64,000 nt of DNA, taken from IMG/VR virus record IMGVR_UViG_3300044782_000023; one strand, written 5' to 3'. Position numbers and translations under genes: made by a program. Below are positions 16,656 through 57,966 of this stretch, one piece after another (the first letter of the stretch is position 1; each line of letters opens with the position of its first letter). Below the pieces are notes generated by a model, which worked only from the letters and a program-made list of their open reading frames with translations, ran no database searches and was not told the origin of the DNA. This DNA comes from a virus.

Positions 16656-16961
16656 ATGATCGACAGCAACCGGCATCCCGTGTACGTCGGCCAGAGAATC
16701 CTGGTCGAGATCGAGTACCGGCTGAATGGCAACCCCACCGACCCGACGATCGTCCAGTACACCTACCGGTCGCCGCTGGGCGTCACCGCCACCGTGACCT
16801 ACCCCGATGAGGCATTCATCCGCCGGTCGGAAGGTTTGTACGACGCCAGCATTCTGGTGGACGAGCCGGGCACCTGGATCATCCGCGGCGAAGGCGCCGG
16901 GATCGTTGACGGCGTAAATGAACTGGCCCAGGAAGTCCTCGCGAGTGGATTGAGTGGATAA
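16656..16961 (+). CDS. Ig-like structural protein, 101 aa
   Basis: Beta-rich, YDASILVDEPGTW motif. Confidence 0.5.
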   Translation: MIDSNRHPVYVGQRILVEIEYRLNGNPTDPTIVQYTYRSPLGVTATVTYPDEAFIRRSEGLYDASILVDEPGTWIIRGEGAGIVDGVNELAQEVLASGLSG

Positions 16962-16990
16962 TGGACGAGAACAGCAACCAGGAGGACATC

Positions 16991-17158
16991 ATGGCCCGCA
17001 CCGGAGCCACGAAGCCATCAGTACCAGACGTCGAACCGGTTATCGATTTCATGGCTGAAGCCCCGCCCGCTCGTCCGTACGGCGACGCGATCACCGCTGA
17101 ACATCGTGCGCTATTGGCTGCCAACGGCGTTAATGTCGCGGCGGCGTCCGGCGAATGA
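16991..17158 (+). CDS. hypothetical protein, 55 aa
   Basis: AGGAGG RBS before ATG 16991; ATGA overlap with next gene. Confidence 0.5.
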   Translation: MARTGATKPSVPDVEPVIDFMAEAPPARPYGDAITAEHRALLAANGVNVAAASGE

Positions 17159-17520
17159 GCATCGAAGCGATCGTCGCTAACGGCCGCCGACTTATCGGTA
17201 CGTCGTTTCTCGATCGCGCCCGCATCCAGGACCGGACGATGGTTCGGGACACCAGCGGCGGCCAGAAGGAGACGTTCACTGAACGGGGTGTCACCATCGA
17301 ATGCCGGTTCGTCACCCCGAAAGACGACGATCCGATCTTGAAGGTGGATAGTGTCTTCGGGCCAGCGACGATGGTGCTGCTGATGCCGCTTGGCACCGTG
17401 TTCGAGGAGGGCGATCGGGTCCGGAATCTCATTGACAGCAGCGTCTTCCAGATCACACGAGACGTGAGCGTCCCCTCTGAACTGGCTGTTCTGATGCGCG
17501 CCGGAATCCGGGAGGTGTAA
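17155..17520 (+). CDS. head-to-tail stopper
   Basis: Synteny and size; DTSGGQKETF...LLMPLGTVFEEGDRV. Confidence 0.7.
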   Translation: MSIEAIVANGRRLIGTSFLDRARIQDRTMVRDTSGGQKETFTERGVTIECRFVTPKDDDPILKVDSVFGPATMVLLMPLGTVFEEGDRVRNLIDSSVFQITRDVSVPSELAVLMRAGIREV

Positions 17521-17522
17521 CC

Positions 17523-17885
17523 GTGGCCGGGTGGAAAGTGAAGTTCAATCGGCTCGGCGCGGTCGCGAAGGCTATGCCACGCGAACTTGGTGATGGCGTC
17601 ACCGAGGTGGCGGAAGCGATGGCCCGGGAATTGAAGACGACCCTGTGGGTCGACACCGGGGTGGTCCGTCGGGTCACCACGGAACGGGATCAGGGGACGC
17701 TGCATTCAGAGGTCGCGGTCGGCTGGTATTTGGCTCACGGTTTCTACTCTGGTTTCCAAGAGTTCGGTGTTGCCAGCCGAGGTATCCCAGCCAGGCCGAT
17801 CGTGGCTCCGACCGCGCATATCTACGAACCGAAGTACGCGCTGGAGATGGCGGAAAAAGTGAAGGACGCCTGTGATGCGACGTGA
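17523..17885 (+). CDS. HK97 gp10-like tail completion protein
   Basis: VDTGVVRR...YSGFQEFG...PARP motif. Confidence 0.75.
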   Translation: MAGWKVKFNRLGAVAKAMPRELGDGVTEVAEAMARELKTTLWVDTGVVRRVTTERDQGTLHSEVAVGWYLAHGFYSGFQEFGVASRGIPARPIVAPTAHIYEPKYALEMAEKVKDACDAT

Positions 17886-18304
17886 TCGAAACCGTAGAGA
17901 TCGCCGAGGAATGGCTGTATGCCACGCTGAGTACTGACACAGCACTGGCCGCACTTGTCAGCGACCGGATTTCCGGCACGCTGAGTCCCGAACTGCTGGT
18001 CATGCCGTACGTGACTTTCTTGATGCAGTCCAGCCGCGACGTGTCAGCCGTTGGTGGGATCAGGATTTCCACTGACAACCTTTACATCGTCAAGGCCGTC
18101 GCTCAGACCAGCACGTGGGATGACCTGACGCCGATCGCCAGCCGAATCGATTACCTAATCCACCGGCCTGGCTCCGTCATGATCGAAGGTGGTGGATCGC
18201 TGACGTGCACTCGGGAGAGAGTGCACCAGTTGGCGGAAGTCGATGAGGGGCTGCAATATCGGCAACTCGGCGGCGTCTACCGAATCCGCGCGAGCGCGGA
18301 CTGA
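17882..18304 (+). CDS. tail terminator
   Basis: Synteny, size about 140 aa. Confidence 0.7.
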   Translation: MIETVEIAEEWLYATLSTDTALAALVSDRISGTLSPELLVMPYVTFLMQSSRDVSAVGGIRISTDNLYIVKAVAQTSTWDDLTPIASRIDYLIHRPGSVMIEGGGSLTCTRERVHQLAEVDEGLQYRQLGGVYRIRASAD

Positions 18305-32084: not shown

Positions 32085-32325
32085 CCTTATCCAATGCGTT
32101 GCGCACGCTCCCGTCGGACAGTGCCAGCCGGTGAATCATCTGGGAGTCGAAACCGTGGCAGAGCAGGTAGTCCCGGACGATCGCCCCGATCCGGCACTTC
32201 GGAGTACGGGTCTCCTGATGCAGGTCCACCAGTGCAACGGCCAGGTCGGCGCTGGCGGCTTCGAGTTCATTCTGTGCCCGCAACTTCCGCGCTGCGGCCA
32301 CCCCGACGTCATCTACCGCGCTCAT
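32062..32325 (-). CDS. hypothetical protein, 87 aa, last gene of the T4SS-like operon
   Basis: ATGA overlap with the upstream hydrolase gene. Confidence 0.55.
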   Translation of the reverse strand: MSAVDDVGVAAARKLRAQNELEAASADLAVALVDLHQETRTPKCRIGAIVRDYLLCHGFDSQMIHRLALSDGSVRNALDKGKPPHRS

Positions 32326-33254
32326 CGTGCTCCCACCATCTGCCAGTGCCAACCTTCGGGCTTGCTGCCACCAGGCTCAGCCCAGTCCGGGTGATGCCAG
32401 CCGAACCGCTTGCTGTTCTCATGCATCCAGACGTCGTATGCACTTGCGACGACCCACTGGCCGCCGTCTGGACCGCACAGGTCGAGCGCCAGCCCCCAGC
32501 CGTGGTTGGATGTGCCGGGGGTCGCCGCCAGGCCGGGCTTGCGCCGACGCACGTCGATCTGCGCGGCCAGCGACCGGTACGAATCGGTGATGCACGGCTT
32601 GGACCCGAAGCGTTGCTGATAGGCCCGCGCGAGTGAGTCGAACGAGTTGGCCGCGTCGGCACGCAGCCGGTGGCGCCGATCAGCCCAGAGGGTACACAGG
32701 GCGCTCGCCGGGATCATCCCGTTCTGGTACTGGCCTGCGTCAGCGGCGCACTTCCCGGCCGCAGGCACAACGCACGTCGGCTGAACATCAACGCCGGTCA
32801 GGAACTTACGGTACGAGCCGGACCAGTACGTCACCCAGGGGTTCCACGACTGTCCGGCGTCCGACCAGACGGCGAAGGCCATCTTCATGTTGTGGCCGGG
32901 GTCGGCCCAGTTGCCGGTGGCGAGGATCGCCTCATGGATCGAGTTGATCTGCATCAGGCCGTAATCGACGGACCCGTTGCCGTTCTGGTTGGTAGCCTTG
33001 GCGTCCCAGCCGGATTCGGCCCGCGCGACCGCGACGGCGATGTCCACGTCCTGGCCCCTGAACCCGGCTCGATAGGCGTGCGCTGACACAGCAGCGGCAT
33101 CCAGCCCGCCGGTCGGGGCAGCCACCGAACAGTCGGCCGTCTCGTCGCCGGTCATGCCGGGGAACTTCGGCGGGCCGGATAGGAAAGCCGTTGCCATCAG
33201 CGGCACCATGAAGACTCCGGCTATGGGGACCAGGATTAGGGCTGCGCGCTTCAC
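32322..33254 (-). CDS. VirB1-like peptidoglycan hydrolase: lytic transglycosylase + M15B (VanY-like) peptidase
   Basis: N-terminal TM; RAESGW and GLMQIN; SYRS, TSNHGWGLALD, EGWHW. Confidence 0.85.
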   Translation of the reverse strand: MKRAALILVPIAGVFMVPLMATAFLSGPPKFPGMTGDETADCSVAAPTGGLDAAAVSAHAYRAGFRGQDVDIAVAVARAESGWDAKATNQNGNGSVDYGLMQINSIHEAILATGNWADPGHNMKMAFAVWSDAGQSWNPWVTYWSGSYRKFLTGVDVQPTCVVPAAGKCAADAGQYQNGMIPASALCTLWADRRHRLRADAANSFDSLARAYQQRFGSKPCITDSYRSLAAQIDVRRRKPGLAATPGTSNHGWGLALDLCGPDGGQWVVASAYDVWMHENSKRFGWHHPDWAEPGGSKPEGWHWQMVGAR

Positions 33255-33730
33255 CGGGCGTACTCGATGTTGAGGACTTTCCAGGCCCCGTCGACGACGA
33301 TCATGTCGAGGACGAGGTCGCCGTCGGTGGTCGGGACGGATACCTTCTGGCGGGTGGGGCCGTCGAGCAGCACCTTGACGACGCCTGTGATCCGCTGGCC
33401 GGGCGGGGGTTTCGGTGCGTCGTTGACGGACTCGACCGCTTCCTGCTGCCCGAGCCGGGCGAACCCAGCGCGGTCACCCAGCAGGAACGCGCTGACGGCC
33501 TCCATGGCGATCGGAGCACTCGGTCCATACCCGGGCGGCGGTGACCCTAGCGCTGACGCTGGAGAGGGCGGCAGTAGTCCGGTGGACTGTGCTGTCGGCG
33601 TGGGCTGCATCGTCGGGAGGTTCCTGACCCGGCTGATGGTCAATGCCATGAACATGATGATGATGAGCGCACCGGCACCGGCCGCCATCATCTTCAGCCG
33701 CTGCGGGCTGTCGAACAACCAGGCGGTCAT
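33251..33730 (-). CDS. single-pass membrane protein, putative VirB8/TcpC-like, 159 aa
   Basis: One TM, Pro-rich linker, small alpha/beta C-terminal domain; position between VirB6-like and VirB1-like genes. Confidence 0.45.
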   Translation of the reverse strand: MTAWLFDSPQRLKMMAAGAGALIIIMFMALTISRVRNLPTMQPTPTAQSTGLLPPSPASALGSPPPGYGPSAPIAMEAVSAFLLGDRAGFARLGQQEAVESVNDAPKPPPGQRITGVVKVLLDGPTRQKVSVPTTDGDLVLDMIVVDGAWKVLNIEYAR

Positions 33731-33777
33731 TCGACGGGCCCCGTCTTCAGCGCGCGGGCTTCCTTCTCGGTCATCAT
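33727..33777 (-). CDS. 16-aa micro-ORF MMTEKEARALKTGPVE
   Basis: AAGGAG RBS; ATGA overlaps at both ends. Confidence 0.4.
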   Translation of the reverse strand: MMTEKEARALKTGPVE

Positions 33778-35531
33778 GGCCGGGCTCCTTCGTTGTCGTC
33801 AGAACGCTCGTACGGGGTGTACGGGCTGGACGCGTCGTCTGGTGGTGGTATGTCGCTCGCGTCGACATGGACTTCGTAAGCGGCAGGTAAGGCGTTGACG
33901 ATGTGGCCGGTCAGGGGTTCGGCGTCCACCGTGGTCGGGGTCTCCGGCACGAACGCCGGAGTCGGGTGGTAAATGTTCGCCTGCACCACTGTTGGCGTGG
34001 TGACGTCCTCCGACAGGCGCTCCGGTTCCTGCACCTTGTCCTCCACGGCTTTCGCCACGGCAGCACCGGCGAACGACCCTCCGACGTAGGAGATCAACGC
34101 GGTCTTCAGCAGTCGACCGATGATGCTGTGACCGTCCGCGCGCCCGAAAGACACGATGGCTTTGAATTTCGCGATCGGTCCGATCGCGGCCCAGGCGATG
34201 CCGGTGCCGATCATCAGCAGCAGCAGCGACCACCACAGGCTCACGCCCGGCGCCATGCACGCTTGCAGGTAAACCCCGAACAGCCACGAGCCGACCGCTG
34301 CGATCAGCACATAGACGGTGGCCTGAATAGCGTTGTTGATCAAACCCATTCCCAACTCCTGCCCGGTTCGGCGACCGATGCGAGGCTGGAGGATGGCGGC
34401 TGTCAGGACCAGCCAGAAGATCGCCAGCATGACTAGGACAATCGCACAGGCGATCATCAGGATGGCAACGGCCAGGCGGATCGCGCAGGCCGCGACGACA
34501 GTCAGCAGTTCCACCACCGTTTCCGTCGAACCTGACTCCTGGCCAGTCAGGTACCTATAGGCCGTCGGATCTTCCGCTTCCACCTTCGCGGCGATGTCCT
34601 TGAACTGATCAGCCTTCGTCTTCGTCAGCGCTTCGCGGGCCTTCGGCTGATCCTTCGGGTCCAACGCGTTGATCGAGTCGAGTTCCGTCCAGGAGACCCT
34701 GGTGCTGGCCAGGAGGTCCGGCCCATAGGTGGCGGCCACCGGAGTCACGGCGCTACCGAAGTTACGTCGCAGCCACCCCTGGTACTGAACGTTCTTCACG
34801 ACCTGGTTGGTGGCCGCGTCCGAGGGGTTCGCGCCGTCGTTCAGCGTGGCCACCAGCGTCCCTGCGGCCGTCTGACTGACTTCCGATGCGAGCATCGGGG
34901 ACAGCAGCAGCAGGCTAGAGATGGTGATGACAATGAAAACCCAGCCGACATTAGTTGCGGCGGAAGACATGTCACCGCTCTGAGCGCGATACAGCAGGAC
35001 GATGGTGGCGAAGGTGATCGCTAACGCCAGGAAAGGAACGAGGATGCTGGTATTCACCACGCCGGTAGCACGAGCCGCGAAGTCGTCAAGGAACGCGACC
35101 ACCCATCCGGGCTCCCAGGCTCGCCGGTCCACCGAATCTGTCAGCGACACCAGGCCGTCACCGATCGAGGTGATGGTGTTCGCGATCGCCGAGTCGGCAG
35201 ACGCGTTCGTTATCCGCGCCCACGATGTGGGGTCGATCGCGCATCCCAAGTCGTAGGTGTGTGAGCGAAGGCCCGCGAAGCCGCCGGTACTCCAGATGTG
35301 GTCGGGTGAGTTGTCCGACGTGACGACGATGGGGCGTTCACCCAGGAGCCCGGCCAGGCCAGTCTCCGGGGTGGCTGCGAACGGCGCCTGCTTCGGACAC
35401 ACCTCAACTCCGGGGATGTCCACTGACCTGACTGCGGCATCCGACGACGATGCGGCCCAGACGATCAGCAGCAGCCCGGCCGCGCAAAAGAACAGGAACA
35501 ACCGCAACCGCGAGTTCCATCGGCGCTTCAC
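33774..35531 (-). CDS. VirB6/TrbL/TcpH-like polytopic membrane protein, 585 aa
   Basis: Signal/TM N-terminus, several TM helices, low-complexity C-tail; immediately downstream of VirB4. Confidence 0.65.
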   Translation of the reverse strand: MKRRWNSRLRLFLFFCAAGLLLIVWAASSSDAAVRSVDIPGVEVCPKQAPFAATPETGLAGLLGERPIVVTSDNSPDHIWSTGGFAGLRSHTYDLGCAIDPTSWARITNASADSAIANTITSIGDGLVSLTDSVDRRAWEPGWVVAFLDDFAARATGVVNTSILVPFLALAITFATIVLLYRAQSGDMSSAATNVGWVFIVITISSLLLLSPMLASEVSQTAAGTLVATLNDGANPSDAATNQVVKNVQYQGWLRRNFGSAVTPVAATYGPDLLASTRVSWTELDSINALDPKDQPKAREALTKTKADQFKDIAAKVEAEDPTAYRYLTGQESGSTETVVELLTVVAACAIRLAVAILMIACAIVLVMLAIFWLVLTAAILQPRIGRRTGQELGMGLINNAIQATVYVLIAAVGSWLFGVYLQACMAPGVSLWWSLLLLMIGTGIAWAAIGPIAKFKAIVSFGRADGHSIIGRLLKTALISYVGGSFAGAAVAKAVEDKVQEPERLSEDVTTPTVVQANIYHPTPAFVPETPTTVDAEPLTGHIVNALPAAYEVHVDASDIPPPDDASSPYTPYERSDDNEGARP

Positions 35532-38200
35532 AGCATCTCCTCGTCCAGTAGCCAGTGGTGAGACGACCCGGCTGGAGCCGGGTCGGTCAGCAGCGCCGCT
35601 TTCAGCGCCGGATGGTAGTCGACGTCGACGCGCATGCCGCCAACATTGCCGTCCACGTCACGGTGGACCCATTCGCCGGGTACGGACGTGGACAGGTTCA
35701 TCAGCACCCCGGCGTAGCGGGGGTCGGTCAAGCCGAGCATGGCCATGGCCTCCAGCGCGGGCTCCGTGCTGGCCATCCGGCCCGCGAATACCGACGCGAT
35801 GAAGTTCTTCAATTCGCCTGAAAGCATCTGCGGGTTGATGCTTTTGACGCCGAGAGCCACATACAGGTTCCACTTGCTGTGGTCGCGTCCCAGCCGGGAG
35901 AACATGCTGCGACCGGGCCCGGAGTCGGTGAGCGACTCCGCTTCGTCGAAGAACACCGCTGCCCGCTGCTCACGCGGCTTGGAGTAGATCAGCCGGTGGG
36001 TGTAGAGCGCGGTCAGGCGCAATACCGCGTCAGCGCCGATTTCCGTCGGGTTCCAATCCCGGCGCGGGGTCCCGTCGGCGGCCCGGACGATGCCCGGCGT
36101 GGTGATCACGGTGAGGGTCTTGCTGTACTGGCCGGGCTCTACCGTCACGCCCCGGGGCGGGAACAGCAGGCGCAGCAGCGGGGCCGTGCTGGCGTCTACC
36201 AGCGCCCCCGCGACCGCGTCGGCGTGTACGTCCTCCAGTGTCACCAGGTTGTCCACCAGGTCCCAGAGGGTGCTGGTGGTTTCCCAGCCGGATCGGTCGG
36301 CGTGACGACGGGCGGCCAAGCGCAGTGTCTCCCGGGTCCGGCCCGACTCCCGGCTCCCATCGGCGACCAGATCTTCGGGTAGGCACCGCAGGGCCATATC
36401 GATGGCCAGGTCACGGCGTTCGGACCGGGCCTGCTCTACAGCGTCAGCCCAGTCACCGGGTTCCGGGTGGTCGGCGCGATGCGGGATACCGATCAGGCCG
36501 GGCGGGCTCAGGATGCCCTTGCGCCCGGTCAGGAGATTGACTTCCTGGGAGACGGCGGCGATCTCTGGCAGGTCGCACAGTTTCGCCAGCGGACCGGACG
36601 GGTCGTTGATGATCGTCATGATGCCCCGGCGTACCAGGTTGTACGCGATCGCTCCGAAGAGGACGGACTTGCCGGACCCGAGAGTGCCGATCATCAGGTG
36701 CATGTTCTGCGCCCGTCCGGTCCGCAGTCCTTCTGTGGCGTAGTGCGGGTCATGCATGACCGGGCGGCGCGAAGCGCCACGGGTGTGCCCAAGGTACGGA
36801 CCACGCGAGTCCCCGACGCTGGCGGTGGCGTTGGCCATCCCAGCCGTCAGGTACGGCAGCCGCAGGCGACGCTGATAGCCGACCCGGTCGAACGGTTCGG
36901 CTATCACGGTCGACTGGAGCATGAAGGATTGGCAGTCGGCACCAGTGAAATCCATCCGCAGACCGCTGGCGCTATACATGTGAGTGAACGAGGCACAGCG
37001 TTCTTCCACGACATCGGCCGCCGACAGGATCATCACGCCGTCGCTGTTGTAGCGGTCCTGGCCGGTGATAATCACGTTGATCTGACCCTGGAAGCGGGTG
37101 GCTTCCAGGGCCTGACCGTTGACAACCTGGTCGCGAGTGTTCAGCGCGACAGCGATGCCGTTGTCGATGACGGCCGGTGGGGTTTCCTTGTGCCAGCCGT
37201 AGTCGCGTTTGATGAACTCCGCCTTCCGCAGTTCCAGTTCGACCTCCGCCTTCATCTCCTCACCGGAGCGGATTCTGCCGACGACGCTCCATTCCACTGG
37301 GAACGGCGCCCCCATAGCGTCCCGGACCGACTCGGCGTGCACCTGCCACGGCGGCAGCCCGTTCTCCGGGTAGTTCAAATCAGCCAGCCGGGCGACCGTT
37401 AGTACGCGAGCCGCTGTCGTCGTCTTCCGGCCGTTGGCCCACGAGGTGACCGCCACAGTGCGTCCGAAAGGGGTCTCCACCCAGCGGATATCGTTGCCGA
37501 GCGCGGGGATTGCCAGTTCGTCCCAGCCGGAACGGGCCTGCACGCCGACCGGCTGCGTTCCTGGAGCCAGCGAGCGCATCCGCAGCCAGCCCTGCTCGAA
37601 CTCGGTCATCGGGCGCGAGCCCGCCCACCCGGACACGACGTCCGACAATCGCTTGACGTCCTCCAGTACCGGCAGCAGTGCCGAATGCGGCGCCCCGCCA
37701 GCCCGGTACGCCTCCAGGTGCTTGCGCAGGTCGAACCGGCTGTTCACCCGGGCGTTCAGGGTGAAGTAGCGGAACACCACCTTGTCGTCCATGCCGGAGC
37801 GAGCGATGACGTCCTGCTGGCGGACCAGGTGCGAGTTCCAGGTCTCGCACCCGCATCGGCCGCGCAGCAGGTCGCCCTTGGGCATCGACAGGTCGCAGGT
37901 GTGCACGTCCGGTGTCGGCGCGGGAGTCCTGGCGTCAAGTTGCGCCGCCCATGACTGGACGGGGTGTGGCCGGGTGGAAACCCGTTCGTGGTAGAACCGC
38001 CCGGCCAGGTTGCTGAAGACGTCAGCGTCCTGGTTCATCCGGGAGATTTTTGCGTCGTTTCCGGTGAAATCCCAGCGGGCAGGGCCGATCCGGTACCCGG
38101 CCCAGATGGTGCCGTCCTTCTGTACGGTCAGGTTCTCGATGATCTCCCGGGCGTTCGGGGCTAGCGGGGGCTGCTTGTGCTTCCACATCAGATCGTCCAC
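35528..38200 (-). CDS. VirB4-like (TcpF/ConE) conjugation ATPase, 890 aa
   Basis: Walker A GTLGSGKS, NDPSG, Walker B VFFDEAE, RDHSKWN...FIASVFAGR; size and context. Confidence 0.82.
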   Translation of the reverse strand: MDDLMWKHKQPPLAPNAREIIENLTVQKDGTIWAGYRIGPARWDFTGNDAKISRMNQDADVFSNLAGRFYHERVSTRPHPVQSWAAQLDARTPAPTPDVHTCDLSMPKGDLLRGRCGCETWNSHLVRQQDVIARSGMDDKVVFRYFTLNARVNSRFDLRKHLEAYRAGGAPHSALLPVLEDVKRLSDVVSGWAGSRPMTEFEQGWLRMRSLAPGTQPVGVQARSGWDELAIPALGNDIRWVETPFGRTVAVTSWANGRKTTTAARVLTVARLADLNYPENGLPPWQVHAESVRDAMGAPFPVEWSVVGRIRSGEEMKAEVELELRKAEFIKRDYGWHKETPPAVIDNGIAVALNTRDQVVNGQALEATRFQGQINVIITGQDRYNSDGVMILSAADVVEERCASFTHMYSASGLRMDFTGADCQSFMLQSTVIAEPFDRVGYQRRLRLPYLTAGMANATASVGDSRGPYLGHTRGASRRPVMHDPHYATEGLRTGRAQNMHLMIGTLGSGKSVLFGAIAYNLVRRGIMTIINDPSGPLAKLCDLPEIAAVSQEVNLLTGRKGILSPPGLIGIPHRADHPEPGDWADAVEQARSERRDLAIDMALRCLPEDLVADGSRESGRTRETLRLAARRHADRSGWETTSTLWDLVDNLVTLEDVHADAVAGALVDASTAPLLRLLFPPRGVTVEPGQYSKTLTVITTPGIVRAADGTPRRDWNPTEIGADAVLRLTALYTHRLIYSKPREQRAAVFFDEAESLTDSGPGRSMFSRLGRDHSKWNLYVALGVKSINPQMLSGELKNFIASVFAGRMASTEPALEAMAMLGLTDPRYAGVLMNLSTSVPGEWVHRDVDGNVGGMRVDVDYHPALKAALLTDPAPAGSSHHWLLDEEML

Positions 38201-38901
38201 TCCACTCGGTATTCGGTGCGGCCGACCCGGAAGCCCTGCGCCGTGCGCTCGATCATCTTGTGCCGTGGTTGCCTCGTCAGGGGGACGAGGCGTTTCTCAA
38301 CGATTGCGCCGGTCAGCGGTTGGGCGATCACTGGAGTTGCGGTCACTGGCGCCGCAGCGGCGGTCAGTGGCTCGGCAGCCACTGGGGTTGCGGTGGAGGT
38401 GAGCATCAGCGGGGCGACGTTCACCTCGATGGCGGGCCTCAGGCGGGGGCCTGAGGCGACCAGGCGAGGCAGGCGCAGCCAGTACCCGAAGGGACGATTC
38501 CAGTCCAGGTACCTGCCCCGACCGCGGACCACAAGGATCGGCAGCGCGAGCGCCGCCAGAAAAGCCACGGGCAGGAACGCCGGACGAATCCAGGTCATCG
38601 GGTTCGCCGAAACGACCAGGCAGACAACGGCCACTAGGGCAGCGATCAGCCTGAACCGCCGTCGGGGGCTGTCGGGGCTGGTCCGTTGGGCGATCGACCG
38701 GCCGCCGACCCAGGTAGCCCAGGCGACGACGATTCCGGCGGGGACAACGAACACCAGGAGGACCATGCCGACCAAAAGGACGGTGAACGCAAGCGCCATC
38801 TCCTCCAGCGTCCAGTCGAACGGGAACCGCATGCCCTTCGGTCCCAGGTAGGGCTTGCGGATCTGCCGCCCCGGGTCGTCGGCGATTTGCCGGGGGCTCA
38901 C
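38188..38901 (-). CDS. TcpE/VirB3-like membrane protein, 237 aa
   Basis: Multiple N-terminal TMs; directly upstream of VirB4. Confidence 0.55.
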   Translation of the reverse strand: MSPRQIADDPGRQIRKPYLGPKGMRFPFDWTLEEMALAFTVLLVGMVLLVFVVPAGIVVAWATWVGGRSIAQRTSPDSPRRRFRLIAALVAVVCLVVSANPMTWIRPAFLPVAFLAALALPILVVRGRGRYLDWNRPFGYWLRLPRLVASGPRLRPAIEVNVAPLMLTSTATPVAAEPLTAAAAPVTATPVIAQPLTGAIVEKRLVPLTRQPRHKMIERTAQGFRVGRTEYRVEWTI

Positions 38902-39011
38902 TTGATCAGCCAGGCGACGATGTCATCGCGGTAGAGGAACAGGTCCAGCGCGCCGAAAAACAGCGCGCTGATGGCCATCAGGGAGAGGACGCGCTCTGTC
39001 AGCGGGCTCAT
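38898..39011 (-). CDS. 37-aa single-TM protein (absent from ORF track)
   Basis: MSPLTERVLSLMAISALFFGALDLFLYRDDIVAWLIK; overlaps neighbours at both ends. Confidence 0.55.
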   Translation of the reverse strand: MSPLTERVLSLMAISALFFGALDLFLYRDDIVAWLIK

Positions 39012-39280
39012 CAGGACAGGATCTTCGTGATGGCTGTGAGCATGGCTGCGCCATACCCGGTGATGACGGCTGCGCCAGCGGCGAGCCCGAGCAGACTCAG
39101 GCAGATCATGGACGCTCCGACCATGCTGGCCGCCTGGCTGTAGTCACCGCGCTGGCCGTGGGTGAGCAGGCCCTTCAGGGTGAGGTAGACCAGCACGACC
39201 AGGCAGCCCAGCAGTAGGAAGCCCTTGGCCCAGATAAGTCCGTTCTCTAGCGCGATATTTGGTTCTGCGAGCAGGTGCAT
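39011..39280 (-). CDS. two-TM pilin/VirB2/TcpD-like protein, 89 aa
   Basis: GAAAGGA RBS; two hydrophobic helices joined by a short loop; first gene of operon. Confidence 0.55.
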   Translation of the reverse strand: MHLLAEPNIALENGLIWAKGFLLLGCLVVLVYLTLKGLLTHGQRGDYSQAASMVGASMICLSLLGLAAGAAVITGYGAAMLTAITKILS

Positions 39281-53946: not shown

Positions 53947-56622
53947 TCATGACGTCACCAGTTCCTTGAAGTTGTCGGGCAGAAGGCATGTCGGCATTCC
54001 GAGGCGGAGAAGAGTGGTCCAATCCTCTTCGGTGTTGGTGTAGTTCGGGTCGGCGTCCGCCGGACATGGCAACCAATAGGCTTGGCATTCGACGGGCGTG
54101 CCGTCACCGATCTGTACGGTGGCCCGGCCTTTCGCCTTGCTGGGCACATCGCGGCCGACGCCTGAGTCTCCGTAGATCATCAGGGCTCGGATGCCGTCGA
54201 TGGCACCAACGGTCGCTCGGCCCGGCAGGTTCTGCCGAACACCGGACGTACCGAACATCTGCGAGTCCGGGCTCTGCGTGCTGATGATGATGTGGATGCC
54301 GCACTTGCGGGCCATCGCAATGACGTCGGCCAGCGCCCGGATCGCCCCGGGGACCTTCTCGCCCGGCCGCTTGAGCGGATTATCATCGTCATCCTTCTCT
54401 CCAGACGTCCATACATCGAACACCCGGTCGTAGTAGGCCTTGAACTCGTCGAAGACGCAAATCCACTTCTCGTGGCTGTCAAGGGGTATGCCGCGCTCCT
54501 CGAAAGCGGTGTAGCGGCGGTCCATCTCGCGCTGGATCATGAACGCGACATCCCACAGGTCGCGGGGCTTGGTCACGATACTCTTCACGCCGGGCCAGCC
54601 CCGGAAGCCCACCATCTCCACTCGCTTCGGGTCCGACAGAATCAGGCGAACCTCCTTGCGGGAGGCCGAATCAGAGGCGGCGGCGATGATGGAGCGGAGG
54701 ATTGAGGTGTTATGCGTCGGGACGCATGCCTCTCCCGCCAGATACAGGCTGCTGGCGGAGTCCACTGTGATGCACCGGACGGGGACGCTCTCGACTGGAT
54801 TGACCGCGACGATGGAACGACGTCGAGACTTCCCATCGCTGACGGCGATGCCCTGACGATCCAACTTCCGAGGATTGCGGAAGACTGCTTCATGTGCGGT
54901 GAAACAGATCCGGTATGCCGTCGAACTGGCTTCGGTGCGACCCTTGCAGCGCTTGGTTCTCATGGTGGCCTTGAATCCCAGCCCCCGAGATAGTTCGAGA
55001 ACACCCCTGGCCAGTTTCTCGCTGGTCGACGTGTATTCGACGGTCCCCAGCGCAACATTCCCATCGCCGTCAAACAGACCGGCGAGCAACGCCTTCCGCT
55101 GCTCGATCGAGCCCCGGAGGTACGCCTCGGGAATGTGCTTGTTTCCCCACACGCCGAGCCTGCGCAGCCGAGACTCCACACCATCCCTCGTGACTGAAAC
55201 GGCGAATCGGACGTCATGGGCATCAGACCTCGGGTCTTTCCGTACTGAAGTGATCCGTGCGACCTTGCCGATCTCCTCGATCATGAAAGCAAGATCCTGT
55301 CCACCTGTGGTGAAGGACGCCTTCGTGCTTCCACCGTCTGCAAGCCACGTTCCGAACAGATAGGGATCTAGCGGCAGTTCCTGCGCTGGGTAATCAAGCG
55401 GACCGGCGATGGGAATCGCATGGTTGCGGGCGCCATCCTTGCGGCCGACTAACGTGGCGCGGACTTCCTCTGTCGTGCGTACCTGTGGCGGCCTGTCGTA
55501 CATCCGGCTGGCCGTCGTACTGGTCAGCCAGTTATGATCCGCGTCGGCGACGATCGTCGCTCCATCGCTGAAGACGACCTCGTAGCATGGACGTCCGTAC
55601 CGGACCTGATGAGCGTAGACAACGCGGCACGCCTTGCCGTCCTCGTCGAAAACCTCCTGACCCTGGACCAGTTCGCCCATGGTCGCCCAGCCCTTCGGCG
55701 TTGGCACGGGGGTGTCAAGCGCCAGGGCCTTCCCACTGTTAGTTTCTCCGATGATCAGCAAGTGGGACGTGTCCATCAGGTTGAATGAAACCCCGTCGGC
55801 GATCGGCAGAACGTACCAGGGGCGGCCCTCTTCCAGCCCAGGATGGTGAACTATCTTCGGCATCGCCGGACGTCGGGTGAACGACGCGCGGTCGTTCTGG
55901 GTGTCCCAGTCGGCGATCCAGCGGTCCCCGATCTTGGCCTGGATCTTGTTCAGCAGATCGAACCGCTTGTCGCTCTCATGGTCGGGGAATCCCGTGCCGA
56001 TGTAGGACACAGTGAAGGCGTTCATGCCCTGCACGTTGAGAATGCGCACGTCCCCCTTGGGGCCGACCGCTTCTCGCACGGCCATGACGATCCGTGCGAC
56101 GTCCAGTCCGCCGGGCTCGTCCTGCGAAACCGGTGAAATGGTTTTCCGGGGGCGGCGGCGCGCTGCACCTTTCTGGACCAAATAGGTGCCGAATGTGGCA
56201 CCGATGGACAGGCCTGACCAGAGCGCCCACTCCCGCGCGGTCGCCTCGTCGTGCTGAAACACGCTCTGCCAGGTGTACCCACCGAGGATCATTGACCCCG
56301 ATCCATACACCAGGCTTGGGGTCCATCGGTGCGGAACCCGGTTGCGCCGGGCGCGGTCGGCCGCCTCACGCGCCGTCTTCTTCTTGTGGCAGGACGTCAG
56401 CCGAGTGGACCCCTTCGGATTGCACAGCACCTGGAGGTTATCCGGGTCCGTGCGCTGCTCGGGCGTACTCTCGCTCTCCGGAATGATGTGGTCGATGTTG
56501 ACCGCGGATATGCTGAAGTACTTCCGGCACCCGGCGCATTGGTACCTGCGTGGGTCGCTCTTATGCTGGGCGAGGTCCAGCACGAGGCGCCGGGTGGCCG
56601 GGAGCAGTTTCGTCTGACTCAT
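53947..56622 (-). CDS. HNH nuclease - 2 TM - FtsK/SpoIIIE-type ATPase fusion with intein (891 aa precursor, about 551 aa spliced)
   Basis: CAGC...NIDHIIP...NLQVLC...CHKKKT; spliced Walker A GETNSGK/T, DPKRVE, Walker B VFDEF, ARKCGIHIIISTQ. Confidence 0.82.
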   Translation of the reverse strand: MSQTKLLPATRRLVLDLAQHKSDPRRYQCAGCRKYFSISAVNIDHIIPESESTPEQRTDPDNLQVLCNPKGSTRLTSCHKKKTAREAADRARRNRVPHRWTPSLVYGSGSMILGGYTWQSVFQHDEATAREWALWSGLSIGATFGTYLVQKGAARRRPRKTISPVSQDEPGGLDVARIVMAVREAVGPKGDVRILNVQGMNAFTVSYIGTGFPDHESDKRFDLLNKIQAKIGDRWIADWDTQNDRASFTRRPAMPKIVHHPGLEEGRPWYVLPIADGVSFNLMDTSHLLIIGETNSGKALALDTPVPTPKGWATMGELVQGQEVFDEDGKACRVVYAHQVRYGRPCYEVVFSDGATIVADADHNWLTSTTASRMYDRPPQVRTTEEVRATLVGRKDGARNHAIPIAGPLDYPAQELPLDPYLFGTWLADGGSTKASFTTGGQDLAFMIEEIGKVARITSVRKDPRSDAHDVRFAVSVTRDGVESRLRRLGVWGNKHIPEAYLRGSIEQRKALLAGLFDGDGNVALGTVEYTSTSEKLARGVLELSRGLGFKATMRTKRCKGRTEASSTAYRICFTAHEAVFRNPRKLDRQGIAVSDGKSRRRSIVAVNPVESVPVRCITVDSASSLYLAGEACVPTHNTSILRSIIAAASDSASRKEVRLILSDPKRVEMVGFRGWPGVKSIVTKPRDLWDVAFMIQREMDRRYTAFEERGIPLDSHEKWICVFDEFKAYYDRVFDVWTSGEKDDDDNPLKRPGEKVPGAIRALADVIAMARKCGIHIIISTQSPDSQMFGTSGVRQNLPGRATVGAIDGIRALMIYGDSGVGRDVPSKAKGRATVQIGDGTPVECQAYWLPCPADADPNYTNTEEDWTTLLRLGMPTCLLPDNFKELVTS
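54709..55728 (-). mobile_element. class-3 intein with LAGLIDADG endonuclease (340 aa) in the FtsK P-loop
   Basis: ALALDTP start, DHNW, VRCITV, VPTHN/Thr+1; LFGTWLADG and LAGLFDGDG. Confidence 0.92.
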
Positions 56623-56780
56623 GACCGACCTTCCTGTCCGACGCCCCGACACAGGCGAGTATCGGAGTCGGCGGCGAAATGTGGAGCGATCGTACGATCA
56701 TCGTTGACGCGCTTGATCTTTCCGCATGCTGGGCATGTCGCCACGTCATCTATGACGTGGCGACCCTTGCGATCGAACAT
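56619..56780 (-). CDS. 53-aa Zn-ribbon-like protein (absent from ORF track)
   Basis: MFDRKGRHVIDDVATCPACGK...PH...C; GGAGG RBS; TAATG and ATGA overlaps. Confidence 0.55.
   Translation of the reverse strand: MFDRKGRHVIDDVATCPACGKIKRVNDDRTIAPHFAADSDTRLCRGVGQEGRS
56737..56764. repeat. perfect 13-bp inverted repeat with 2-nt spacer
   Basis: GTCGCCACGTCAT-CT-ATGACGTGGCGAC. Confidence 0.9.
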
Positions 56781-57082: not shown

Positions 57083-57112
57083 AGAGTACATCTGTTGACA
57101 TTGGCCTGTCAA
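57083..57112 (-). promoter_or_regulatory. promoter/operator for the HNH-FtsK operon
   Basis: TTGACA-18-TACTCT with TTGACA-N6-TGTCAA palindrome. Confidence 0.7.
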
Positions 57113-57966
57113 CCCAGCAGGACCTTCTCCCACCGGCCGATCTTCACCGCAGCGGCGGCCAGCGTAATCGTCTCCCCCGACCAGTCCTTCGTCTCCCTGA
57201 CCATGTCATCAGGAGTCCACGGGGACCGCTCGCGAGCCATCAGCCAGTCATTCCACAGCGGGTGCTCCCGAGCGGGCCACCGCTTCTGCCCCAACGCCGG
57301 TCTCGGCGAAACAGGCCGAGGCGCCGCGACCGGCGAAACAGGCCGAGGCGCCGCGACCGGCGGTCTCGGCGAAACCGGCTTCGGAGCCGCTGCGGCGACC
57401 GTGACGGTAGACGTGGGCGCCGCCGTCAGTCCACGGGCCTTCGCCGGGTTCGTCTCACCGGCCCAGACGGCGGCCCGAAAAGCCTTCGCCGACAGCCTCG
57501 GAAACAGCACCCACTGAATGGCCGTGAACTTCACCGCACGCCCGTCGATCAACTCCAGTGCCCGCAGCCGGTCACGAGACATCGAACGGGACCTGATCGC
57601 CCACAACACCGGCGACAGCGTCGACAGGACACCGAACACAATCGCCGGAGCGTTCGGTGCCACGAGGCGCGGCGCGAAATGGGCGTAGTTCAGGAGCCCG
57701 GCCAGCAGGCCCACCCCGTACGACCCCAAGCGCAGGCGCAGCGACGCGTCCCCGGCCAGTAGGGCGCGGTGCGCCTCGGCGGCCAGGTAGACCCCGATGG
57801 ACTCCACCGCGAGCGCGAAACCGACCGCTACGTACCAGAAACGGGAGCCAGGCGTCAGGTGCTCGTGCGCCCACATCACCTGACCGTAAGCGGCCACGGT
57901 GTTCACCAACAACAGCGGAACGACCAGCGCGACGTTCGCGATCAGGTCAGGGTGCTTCTTCTTCAT
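57109..57966 (-). CDS. DUF2637/Spd-like membrane protein with Pro-rich linker and C-terminal helical domain
   Basis: Four TMs, PVSPRP repeats; architecture like actinomycete plasmid spread proteins. Confidence 0.5.
   Translation of the reverse strand: MKKKHPDLIANVALVVPLLLVNTVAAYGQVMWAHEHLTPGSRFWYVAVGFALAVESIGVYLAAEAHRALLAGDASLRLRLGSYGVGLLAGLLNYAHFAPRLVAPNAPAIVFGVLSTLSPVLWAIRSRSMSRDRLRALELIDGRAVKFTAIQWVLFPRLSAKAFRAAVWAGETNPAKARGLTAAPTSTVTVAAAAPKPVSPRPPVAAPRPVSPVAAPRPVSPRPALGQKRWPAREHPLWNDWLMARERSPWTPDDMVRETKDWSGETITLAAAAVKIGRWEKVLLG

Follow-up and report, generated by a model that had tools for sequence, protein, structure and literature searches.

In the theory of conjugation, DNA that is to pass through a T4SS must first be nicked, and then be piloted, by a relaxase. 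TraB is the one established exception in Actinomycetota, where the way in which a closed circular duplex is threaded by the motor has been left open. The 64,000-nt stretch of phage DNA analysed here (hereafter the window) bears on both points, as it encodes a protein in which an HNH nuclease domain precedes an FtsK-type ATPase, along with a minimal T4SS and no recognisable relaxase. The question is thus whether an ATPase carrying its own nuclease could start, as well as drive, the transfer of the phage genome.

Architecture of the fusion protein

The fusion gene lies in a single reading frame on the minus strand (53947-56652), which ends in a stop codon at 53947-53949. Its probable start codon is the ATG at 56622, with GGAAGG just ahead of it, and the same start and the same 891-aa product were obtained by independent gene calls on three contigs from other samples. 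Pfam families found above their cut-offs in the precursor are HNH (31.8 bits, cut-off 21.4), FtsK_SpoIIIE (PF01580; 36.2 bits, cut-off 24, despite the interruption by an intein), LAGLIDADG_3 and Hom_end (Table 1). A preliminary description, made from the letters of the sequence, had proposed that splicing yields an HNH domain, a membrane hairpin and an FtsK-type ATPase devoid of a C-terminal gamma winged helix. This architecture, with a helical hairpin as the middle element, is confirmed by Pfam, by the motifs, every one of which was located in the precursor, and by an AF2 model of the protein (pLDDT 85). In the latter, the RecA-like domain is followed by only ~30 residues forming two short helices, and a winged helix of the TraB type, which binds clt, is absent.

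Table 1. Features of the fusion gene and of associated loci in the window.
Feature	Position	Strand	Evidence
Entire fusion gene (HNH, hairpin, FtsK-type ATPase), 891 aa as precursor and 551 aa once spliced	53947..56622	-	ORF, start/RBS, gene calls, Pfam
N-terminal zinc-HNH nuclease domain (predicted), aa 1-95 (CxxC, DH, N, C, CH)	56338..56622	-	Pfam HNH, conservation, model
Helical hairpin, aa 99-152, K/R-rich flanks, probable two-helix membrane anchor	56167..56328	-	AF2 model, hydropathy
Linker and N-terminal part of the motor (alpha-like domain, strand into Walker A GETNSGK), end of N-extein	55729..56166	-	Alignment, model/Foldseek
340-aa class-3-type intein with LAGLIDADG homing endonuclease, between K and T of the P-loop	54709..55728	-	Absence in homologues, Pfam, motifs
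C-extein: remainder of the RecA-like ATPase (Walker B VFDEF, STQSPD, RQNLPGRA), short conserved tail (EDW..LLRLGMP), no gamma wHTH	53950..54708	-	Pfam, invariant columns, model
DUF2637-like membrane protein, candidate accessory, in the leftward operon of the fusion and two genes ahead of it	57109..57966	-	Weak Pfam DUF2637 (E 0.005)
Minimal Gram-positive-type T4SS module	32322..39280	-	Pfam AAA_10, SLT_3, VanY; TM peaks

In the numbering of the precursor, the HNH motifs are CAGC (29-32), DHIIP (44-48), NLQVLC (62-67) and CH (78-79), and an alignment of 28 diverse sequences shows no variation at C29, C32, D44, H45, N62, C67, C78 and H79. The domain is modelled with a pLDDT of 92 and its top solved matches are the HNH nucleases 5h0m, PtuB and 4h9d. 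Judged by sequence and model, the presence of the DH pair, the Asn, the metal-binding His and a Cys4-type zinc site predicts a nuclease of the HNH (beta-beta-alpha-Me) class. This fold lies outside the HUH, Rep_trans, PD-(D/E)XK and tyrosine-recombinase folds, and the protein therefore belongs to no known relaxase family. HNH enzymes form no covalent 5' adduct of the kind that pilots T-DNA through classical T4SSs. Of note, 5h0m and 4h9d, among the nearest solved folds, are small nicking enzymes, with weak match scores.

The AF2 model places two helices at about aa 100-121 and 126-154, where the preliminary description had seen two TM segments. The hairpin itself is thus borne out, but its hydrophobicity is marginal in this protein: mean Kyte-Doolittle values over 19 aa reach only ~0.3 and ~0.8 for the helices at aa 101-121 and 131-151; membrane proteins encoded in the nearby T4SS module score 1.65-3.2 in the same test. 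The equivalent helices of divergent family members are clearly hydrophobic (1.6-2.4), so that a membrane anchor is well supported for the family as a whole and probable, not certain, for the window protein. The flanks of the hairpin are rich in K and R and its loop is acidic, a charge pattern that would fit a cytoplasmic location of both the HNH domain and the motor.

Within the intein (aa 299-638), Ala1, HNW (block B), VRCITVD (block F) and PTHN followed by T (block G) were recognised, and its Ala1, Trp-Cys-Thr triad, C-terminal HN and +1 Thr are those expected of a class 3 intein, to which it can be assigned on these signatures. It is missing exactly in 27 homologues of 535-561 aa, which confirms the splice junction, and is thus carried by a single member out of 28; its excision would rejoin the Walker A motif GETNSGK (aa 292-298) to T639. 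The intein is 35-36% identical to the terminase inteins of the same genome and ~41% identical to a region of gp206 of mycobacteriophage Catera, which has been discussed among class 3 inteins (PMC3196547). A tblastn search of deposited phages with the whole precursor returned 942 records that matched the intein only, and the exteins were consequently searched separately.

A rare but conserved family

This fusion of HNH and FtsK domains accounts for ~24 of 1.84 billion clusters defined at 50% identity. These clusters extend down to ~30% identity, with the HNH domain always in the same position and its catalytic and zinc residues invariant; all 27 intein-less homologues retain these residues as well as Walker A and B. 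Mean pairwise identity in the family amounts to 55% for the HNH domain and 55-56% for the motor, and to 30-37% for the hairpin and linker. Since all members keep the key residues of the nuclease domain, at a level of conservation that equals that of the motor, this domain more probably has a central function linked to pumping than an accessory one.

The carriers form a lineage of uncultured, 70-80 kb actinobacterial tailed phages. A portal identity of 57% makes Arthrobacter and other Micrococcales candidate hosts. The fusion has no match in 50,697 deposited phage genomes, megablast of the gene against deposited phages returned nothing, and neither the N-extein nor the VirB4-like protein described below is matched in these 50,697 records, and this phage group is without a cultured member. 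The literature searched describes neither the fusion nor a T4SS of this type carried by a phage.

The motor resembles coupling ATPases of Gram-positive conjugation

Kinship of the motor was judged by profile and fold ranks. Its Walker A and Walker B (VFDEF, aa 723-727) motifs, its profile match and the motifs invariant in the family assign it, at the level of sequence, to the FtsK/SpoIIIE-HerA superfamily of ATPases, and model and Foldseek make it alignable to FtsK and TcpA motors from residues ~163-177 on. The preliminary description had proposed a structural comparison with TcpA, VirD4 and other translocases. The best solved fold match proved to be TcpA of pCW3 (6o1x, E 2e-17), followed by the FtsK motor (5e-14), while a profile search of the PDB returned FtsK (2.5e-14) and TcpA (2.6e-12). 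No TrwB or VirD4 chain reached E<=0.01 in that profile search or figured in the 50 best Foldseek matches, and the Pfam families T4SS-DNA_transf and TrwB_AAD_bind have no match in the fusion protein, which is hence not of the VirD4/TrwB type. At the sequence level, the C-extein is 25-28% identical to phage FtsK/SpoIIIE-like proteins, and ESM Atlas features, which score at most 0.86 against generic actinobacterial FtsK clusters, were uninformative.

The nearest cellular and plasmid relatives of the motor are FtsK-like genes that close operons for a VirB4, a VirB6-like protein and a hydrolase, as seen in 17 of 20 actinobacterial loci with full flanks; they occur in Microbacteriaceae, Rhodococcus, Mycolicibacterium and Cutibacterium plasmids. 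Together with TcpA as top structure, this supports the view, based on sequence and model, that the motor is of the coupling-protein kind. No relative of the motor bearing an HNH domain was found among GTDB species genomes.

A T4SS module accompanies the fusion

The module in the window encodes a 2-TM protein of 89 aa, a 3-TM protein of 237 aa, a VirB4-like AAA_10 ATPase (35528-38200), a 6-TM protein of 585 aa, a single-TM protein of 159 aa and a TM-anchored SLT and VanY hydrolase. Its gene order is that of the T4SS operons of actinobacteria and of Cutibacterium plasmids that end in an FtsK-like gene, and the module is kept in the related genomes G001-G003. It adjoins the lysis cassette. No integrase or resolvase was found in genomes of the window type.

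In the window, 16 kb separate the fusion gene from the T4SS operon. The fusion and the VirB4-like gene occur together in the window, in G001 and in all four IMG/VR relatives that are 96-100% complete, namely G002, G003, G006 and G008. More generally, each of the nine informative contexts with the fusion also holds a minimal T4SS of Gram-positive type; the co-occurrence with virB4 in related phages that the preliminary description had called for is thus found, and its converse, homologues living mostly without T4SS genes, is not. In two distant relatives, L101 and L103, the fusion immediately follows the operon for VirB4, a membrane protein and a hydrolase, on the same strand, and a third, L095, shows the same layout in the part that it holds, with the fusion after the T4SS operon. 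The gene thus keeps the company expected of a coupling protein, with a VirB4-type ATPase, a VirB6-like protein and a wall hydrolase encoded in the same genomes. The DUF2637-like gene lies beside the fusion in G001 and G002 also, and a faint DUF2637 gene precedes the 800-aa HNH-FtsK variant of L095.

No known relaxase detected in these phages

The preliminary description had recognised no relaxase, and indeed none of the known families was detected among the ~50 window proteins scanned with Pfam. For this phage the scan covers the 64,000-nt window of a 74,206-bp contig, ~10 kb of which lie outside it. A relaxase elsewhere in the genome was therefore looked for in relatives, where searches for seven Pfam relaxase families and for tyrosine recombinases, whose fold TcpM-type relaxases share, gave no match: PF03432, PF02486 and PF08751 are absent from G001-G003, G006 and G008, PF03389, PF01076 and PF13814 from G001-G003, and PF07514 and PF00589 from seven records. 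This includes the four relatives that are 96-100% complete, in none of which a known Pfam relaxase was detected. Receipt of a relaxase-DNA complex, another hallmark of coupling proteins, thus finds no counterpart here as far as these seven families and tyrosine recombinases are concerned.

The cellular loci give a similar picture. Pfam detects no relaxase in ten proteins flanking the cellular T4CP homologues, TrwC and Relaxase profiles match in some of the eight host genomes without a tie to the T4SS loci, and no HNH lies within 10 kb of the cellular or plasmid FtsK-like coupling genes. Besides the T4CP, VirB4 and the hydrolase, the proteins flanking the cellular genes have no homologue in the phages, and no candidate relaxase is common to both. 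In addition, MOB-suite finds no relaxase in the one Cutibacterium acnes plasmid with such a T4SS that was examined, and types it as non-mobilizable, so that the lack of a known relaxase is not peculiar to the phages. Replacement of the relaxase by the HNH domain is therefore only one reading; a relaxase of an unrecognised family, or dsDNA transfer as by TraB, may be at work instead.

Comparison with known DNA translocases

TcpA of pCW3 shares with the fusion protein an FtsK/SpoIIIE-type NBD devoid of a gamma domain and preceded by two N-terminal helices, and the genes of both are associated with those for VirB4, a wall hydrolase and a membrane protein of the VirB6 kind. However, the two are only 17-18% identical and TcpA has no nuclease domain, whereas the window protein has an HNH domain ahead of the hairpin, comes with no relaxase that could be found and is carried by a tailed phage. 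The TcpA system of Clostridium perfringens uses a dedicated relaxase, TcpM; Orf21 of Tn916 and ConQ of ICEBs1 are related FtsK-like coupling proteins of Gram-positive conjugation. Closer still to the motor (26-36% identity over residues ~143-533) are the T4SS coupling proteins of Microbacterium, Plantibacter, Rhodococcus, Mycolicibacterium and a C. acnes plasmid (NC_021086.1), encoded in operons that share the order VirB4-like gene, gene for a ~650-aa membrane protein, hydrolase gene and FtsK-like gene. They differ in their size (610-800 aa), in their N- and C-terminal extensions and in being borne by plasmids or chromosomes, not by phages.

Chromosomal FtsK combines 4-5 TM helices with a long linker and also possesses a gamma wHTH. 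The alpha and RecA-like beta motor fold, Walker A and B and the Arg/Gln motifs of FtsK/SpoIIIE are found in the window protein, which in contrast has a hairpin of two helices and a linker of 20 aa, lacks the gamma domain and carries an HNH domain.

Two relaxase-free systems also invite comparison. Streptomyces TraB, the translocase of plasmids and AICEs, is a membrane-associated hexamer of the FtsK family that transfers dsDNA between cells without a relaxase or any other processing enzyme (PMC4447253, PMC3429521). Family, independence from a relaxase and occurrence in Actinomycetota are common ground, but TraB reads clt repeats through a C-terminal wHTH, needs no T4SS and has no nuclease, whereas in the window protein the wHTH is missing, an HNH domain is present and the genetic link is to a VirB4 T4SS. 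In the transjugation of Thermus thermophilus, TdtA of ICETh1, a membrane-bound hexamer of the FtsK/HerA family, donates DNA without a relaxase, together with NurA-like and restriction nucleases (PMC5365140). TdtA is the closest precedent for a logic of cutting and pumping; it differs in that its nucleases are separate and of other folds, no T4SS is involved, the recipient takes up DNA by competence, and the motor is HerA-like and not TcpA/FtsK-like.

What may the fusion protein do?

The reading that we favour, at a probability of roughly 0.45, is that the fusion protein acts as coupling ATPase (T4CP) for a phage-borne, conjugation-type T4SS and that its N-terminal HNH domain would initiate transfer by cutting. 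The precursor would become active only once the class 3 intein has spliced out of the P-loop, and the 551-aa product would then be anchored by its hairpin at the cytoplasmic face of the membrane, presumably as a hexameric ring such as those of FtsK and TcpA. Docked on the VirB4/VirB6-like channel, the ring would drive phage DNA towards it, while the HNH domains, tethered beside its membrane-proximal mouth, would nick or cut the substrate and thereby provide a free end for the motor and the channel. In other systems the initiating cut is made by relaxases; the initiation proposed here would involve no covalent pilot protein. As a result, the phage genome could pass from cell to cell without virions. 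Points that speak against this reading are the marginal hydrophobicity of the hairpin, the 16 kb that separate the fusion gene from the T4SS operon in the window, and the lack of a covalent 5' adduct in the chemistry of HNH enzymes. The interpretation of the preliminary description, a fusion that cuts the DNA of the element and pumps it into the VirB4 channel, is as a whole partly supported.

The strongest competitor, although we consider it rather unlikely, accepts the motor as a T4SS coupling ATPase and denies the HNH domain the part of a relaxase. The nuclease would instead process concatemers or terminally redundant linear DNA ahead of transfer, cut host or other resident DNA at the membrane, or free the channel of DNA that has stalled in it, and transfer would be initiated by an unrecognised relaxase or by cut-free pumping of dsDNA in the manner of TraB, which requires no processing enzyme (PMC4447253, PMC3429521). 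Plasmid and chromosomal T4SS relatives work, or presumably work, without an HNH domain, which is confined to the phage-borne lineage and may thus be an add-on with another role; the lack of a recognised relaxase in the plasmid T4SS examined points the same way. Yet the invariance of the HNH domain and its motor-like conservation in all members are not what an add-on would lead one to expect, nor do cellular loci and phages share a candidate relaxase.

Somewhat less probable again is a role in exclusion or conflict, with a membrane-tethered nuclease-translocase capturing incoming phage or plasmid DNA, or host DNA, reeling it in and destroying it, and with a linkage to the T4SS that is incidental or regulatory. 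Pairs of a nuclease and an FtsK/HerA-type ATPase recur in defence and conflict systems, HerA-Sir2 and HerA-NurA are among the lower-ranked Foldseek matches, and in PADLOC the ATPase core is partly matched by mad8 and SspH, and the HNH domain by PtuB of Septu. The PADLOC matches, however, span generic P-loop and HNH cores only, and membership in these defence systems was rejected on that ground. Moreover, the nearest motors are conjugative and not defensive, a T4SS is present in 9/9 contexts, and in three of them the fusion is the last cistron of the T4SS operon, the place of the coupling protein in plasmids.

It is improbable that the T4SS-like module and the ATPase serve the lytic cycle, be it in DNA entry or exit, envelope remodelling or protein secretion, with the HNH domain degrading host DNA or aiding packaging. 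HNH proteins are known to assist phage terminases, and this proposal would suit genomes without integrase or resolvase whose module neighbours the lysis genes. Nevertheless, L103 has an additional HNH between its terminase subunits, the typical position of a packaging HNH, and related Arthrobacter phages of ~43 kb, with a similar portal, have neither the VirB4-like gene nor the fusion, so that neither is required for the basic lytic cycle. Lastly, the genome is rich in selfish elements (the intein studied here, the paralogous terminase inteins, a free-standing HNH_3 gene), but a homing HNH endonuclease fused by chance and functionless in the protein is very hard to reconcile with a fixed position, invariant residues over ~24 clusters down to ~30% identity and conservation equal to that of the motor, when insertions of homing endonucleases are sporadic, as is the intein (1/28 members).

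Implications for phage biology

A conserved nuclease built into a coupling ATPase, with no recognisable relaxase nearby, makes the fusion protein a candidate self-priming DNA pump. A bolder proposal, for which we would claim only tentative standing, is that these phages spread their genomes without virions by their own T4SS and that the HNH-armed coupling protein initiates transfer independently of a relaxase, as a hexameric pump for dsDNA or ssDNA which would make its own end at the membrane. If true, this would be a third conjugative mechanism of DNA processing, beside relaxase-piloted ssDNA transfer and dsDNA transfer of the TraB type, and conjugation would be a second way for a tailed phage to spread. 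Complete tailed-phage genomes do carry an entire minimal T4SS beside a full virion module, in a pairing that is conserved, and some phages may hence have two routes of transmission, which would bear on phage host range, on horizontal gene transfer and on the boundaries between phages, plasmids and ICEs.

An HNH nuclease domain on an FtsK-type motor

The fusion gene is a single long ORF whose probable start codon, the ATG at 56622, is preceded six bases upstream by GGAAGG, and gene calling on three contigs of independent origin, two from Logan runs and one from a JGI metagenome, yields an identical 891-aa product. Pfam recognizes in the precursor, all above their cut-offs, HNH (31.8 bits, aa 39-95 in GTG-start numbering), FtsK_SpoIIIE (36.2 bits), LAGLIDADG_3 and Hom_end, which agrees with the preliminary description of the spliced protein as an HNH domain joined to an FtsK/SpoIIIE ATPase. 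The AF2 model of P0002, a 72%-identical homologue (pLDDT 85), displays the same HNH domain, helix pair and motor (see table) and also bears out the proposed absence of a C-terminal gamma winged helix, as the motor is followed by a tail of ~30 residues with two short helices. Modelled by itself, the HNH domain reaches a pLDDT of 92; among solved structures, the HNH of phage GVE2 (5h0m, TM 0.5), PtuB and the Geobacter HNH nickase come closest, and their E-values are weak, as can be expected of a 98-residue domain.

In alignments of 22 sequences (A1) and of 28 N-termini, some from members with identities near 30% (A3), residues C29, C32, D44-H45, N62, C67 and C78-H79 of the HNH domain are invariant. 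The Walker A (GxTxxGKT) and Walker B (DE) motifs of the motor are likewise invariant, together with additional Arg, Gln and Asn residues. Mean pairwise identity is 55% in the HNH region and 55-56% in the two motor domains (30% in the hairpin, 37% in the linker); the nuclease domain is therefore constrained as strongly as the ATPase.

Features of the window and domains of the P0002 model (nt, window; aa, model)
Feature	Position	Strand	Remarks
Large terminase	2564-6694 nt	+	contains inteins
YdjM-type 'metal-dependent hydrolase'	51421-52743 nt	+	membrane protein
CxCxxC protein	53487-53939 nt	-	150 aa, directly downstream of fusion
Fusion ORF	53947-56652 nt	-	single long ORF
FtsK intein	54709-55728 nt	-	insert within the P-loop of the fusion gene
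DUF2637-like protein	57109-57966 nt	-	multi-TM, Pro-rich C-terminal half
HD_4 protein	59029-59823 nt	-	RelA/SpoT-type HD
HNH_3 endonuclease	59917-60345 nt	-	free-standing
T4SS module, small protein		-	2 TM
T4SS module, small protein		-	3 TM
T4SS module, VirB4-like ATPase		-	890 aa, AAA_10
T4SS module, 585-aa protein		-	6 TM
T4SS module, single-TM protein		-	
T4SS module, TM-anchored hydrolase		-	SLT+VanY
P0002, HNH domain	1-95 aa		
P0002, two long helices	100-121, 126-154 aa		
P0002, disordered linker	155-171 aa		
P0002, alpha-like and RecA-like domains	176-520 aa		
P0002, C-terminal tail			~30 residues, no winged helix formed

The P-loop, GETNSGK (aa 292-298), is split by a 340-residue insert and continues at T639. 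This insert starts with Ala, ends with HN and contains the motifs HNW (block B), VRCITVD (block F) and PTHN (block G) as well as two LAGLIDADG motifs; judged by its Trp-Cys-Thr signature, it is a class 3 intein. It is ~41% identical to a region of mycobacteriophage Catera gp206, treated among class 3 inteins (PMC3196547). Its boundaries are confirmed by 27 homologues from a word-indexed search (535-561 aa, 42-72% identity over the N-extein, i.e., the part preceding the intein), which lack exactly the insert. It is also 35-36% identical to inteins of the large terminase of the same genome, where at least two full-length paralogues and a third, shorter match are found; the FtsK and terminase inteins start with A/P-LALDTP and end with THN, and the terminases of the IMG/VR relatives G002 and G003 (560 aa) are intein-free. 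An intein akin to those of the phage is apparently also present in a cellular FtsK-like homologue from an uncultured Actinomycetota MAG (L049 3110-4318; L050): tblastn matches run on into the intein region as well as a terminase intein.

The two TM segments of the preliminary description find mixed support: helices at the hairpin position are clearly hydrophobic in the divergent members P0028, P0019 and P0024 and in the proteins of relatives G006 and G008, but those of the window protein score only ~0.3 and ~0.8 (19-residue Kyte-Doolittle window), and all predicted membrane proteins of the adjoining T4SS module score 1.65-3.2 in the same test. The hairpin is flanked by Lys/Arg-rich stretches and has an acidic loop. 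With the hairpin inserted across the membrane, nuclease and motor would both face the cytoplasm, in line with the preliminary description.

Association with a phage-borne T4SS

The window is a tailed-phage genome. It encodes the large terminase with its inteins, a portal of the SPP1 type that shares 57% identity with those of ~43-kb Arthrobacter phages, a capsid of the HK97 type and tail proteins, besides an amidase endolysin, Prim-Pol/D5, an exonuclease and endonuclease VII. The lysis genes are followed by a minimal Gram-positive-type T4SS module. A tblastn search of 50,697 deposited phage genomes found no match to its VirB4-like protein or to the N-extein.

Full-length fusion homologues were found on three IMG/VR contigs (one with direct terminal repeats, two rated 100% complete), all syntenic with the window and all with a VirB4-like gene. 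Searching from the VirB4 side returned eight contigs, including two additional near-complete ones (98% and 96%) that both encode the fusion with intact HNH motifs; it is missing only from three fragments (36-62% complete). All complete or near-complete IMG/VR relatives thus pair the two genes. In an exhaustive search of 1.84 billion representatives, the complete HNH and motor architecture was seen in ~24 clusters, other strong matches being motor-only; Pfam revealed one further HNH-bearing variant of 800 aa. In three distant members, the fusion gene comes immediately after the T4SS operon, in the same orientation, following AAA_10, a 638-aa protein and a VanY hydrolase (L101), after 938-aa and 692-aa proteins and an SLT+M23 hydrolase, with terminase and portal downstream (L103), or after a membrane protein, an SLT/NlpC hydrolase and a DUF2637-like protein (L095). 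This last-gene place is that of coupling proteins in plasmid operons. HNH-FtsK homologues therefore do not occur mostly apart from T4SS genes, as judged by the pairing in relatives and this operon linkage.

Several neighbouring genes recur. The YdjM-type hydrolase, followed in the window by a Prok-JAB protein, is also near an FtsK-type gene in L101 (12232-12756), L103 (14677-15222), L099 (13946-14722) and the P0053 contig, and two genes past the FtsK-like gene of Micrococcus plasmid pLMV7, and may represent yet another conserved partner. The CxCxxC protein, with repeated motifs and a PHROG 'HTH DNA binding' match, accompanies the fusion in G001 and G002 as well and might act as an accessory in DNA recognition. 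The DUF2637-like protein precedes both the fusion gene and the 800-aa variant (L095 3866-5326). The HD_4 and HNH_3 genes share a leftward early-like region, and an HD_4 homologue lies next to a T4SS locus in Curtobacterium as well (L030 19820-20299).

Affinity of the motor

For the comparison suggested in the preliminary description (TcpA, VirD4, TraB, EccC), profile and fold ranks were used; these place TcpA and FtsK on top and EccC lower, VirD4 being absent. A profile search of PDB sequences gave FtsK (2.5e-14), TcpA, the pCW3 coupling protein (2.6e-12, longest stretch), and then EccC, and Foldseek ranked TcpA first (2e-17), followed by FtsK (5e-14), EccC/EssC and HerA. No TrwB or VirD4 was returned by the PDB profile search, and a VirD4/TrwB identity was rejected on this basis. 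The protein belongs to no known relaxase family either.

Among GTDB genomes (one per species), no homologue with HNH was found; the best matches are Actinomycetota FtsK-like proteins of 610-800 aa, 26-32% identical over residues ~143-533. Twenty such loci have complete flanks, and 17 of these show a VirB4-like gene in the same orientation 5-8 kb upstream; examples examined with Pfam read AAA_10, an unannotated ~650-aa protein, an M23 or NlpC/P60 hydrolase and the FtsK-like gene. The annotated gene order of Cutibacterium acnes plasmid NC_021086.1 is the same. Ranks and operon context together place the motor among the FtsK-like coupling proteins encoded in T4SS operons of actinobacteria. The fusion protein is thus a member of the FtsK/SpoIIIE superfamily, predicted from sequence and models to act like a TcpA-type coupling protein. 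In contrast to FtsK proper, it has no gamma wHTH domain, and it differs from Streptomyces TraB in lacking a clt-binding wHTH.

Relaxases and the role of the HNH domain

As previously proposed, no relaxase was recognized in the window: Pfam, which like the profiles below detects known families only, found none among its ~50 proteins, ~10 kb of the 74-kb contig lying outside the window. In six-frame searches of complete relatives, Relaxase, Rep_trans and TrwC profiles had no match in G001-3, G006 and G008, nor had MobA_MobL, Mob_Pre and Replic_Relax in G001-3 or TraI_2, Phage_integrase and Resolvase in seven records; control genomes gave matches in these relaxase and integrase searches. While no integrase or resolvase was found in the window-type genomes (G001-G008), contig L101, with the same T4SS and HNH-FtsK operon, has genes for a tyrosine integrase and a repressor-like HTH protein (16714-17946), so that the lineage seems to span integrating and non-integrating members.

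The best-supported reading is that the fusion is the coupling ATPase of a phage-borne T4SS with an integral predicted nuclease. A basic helix connects the HNH domain with the first helix of the hairpin, and a linker of 20 residues connects the second with the motor, so that in a ring the nucleases would encircle the membrane-proximal pore mouth. The putative nuclease may nick or cut the substrate, thereby giving the free end needed by motor and channel; we consider this the most likely role, though at a probability somewhat below one half. A precedent for a nuclease-plus-pump without relaxase is DNA donation in Thermus, where TdtA, a hexamer of the FtsK/HerA type bound to the membrane, depends on a NurA-like nuclease and on a restriction enzyme (PMC5365140).

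The main weakness of the HNH domain as initiator is that homologous plasmid T4SS systems lack it, and the one examined, NC_021086.1, is also without a recognized relaxase. The absence of a relaxase is hence not phage-specific, and the HNH domain may instead process concatemeric or linear phage DNA, or attack other DNA. This plasmid bears a full operon (L100, 17646-28039: VirB4-like ATPase, membrane protein, C40 peptidase, FtsK-like gene) and is typed as non-mobilizable by MOB-suite, as are 121 of the 322 plasmids in which the motor has a match; its actinobacterial T4SS class may systematically escape standard typing. It is very unlikely that the HNH is a selfish element without function, since the domain is as conserved as the motor, with invariant catalytic and zinc residues.

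No description of an HNH-type IV coupling protein fusion, or of a phage-borne T4SS of this type, was found in the literature searched. There is a smaller but appreciable probability that the coupling ATPase with its predicted nuclease exemplifies, in a phage, a genuinely new way of processing DNA for conjugation that does not depend on a relaxase.
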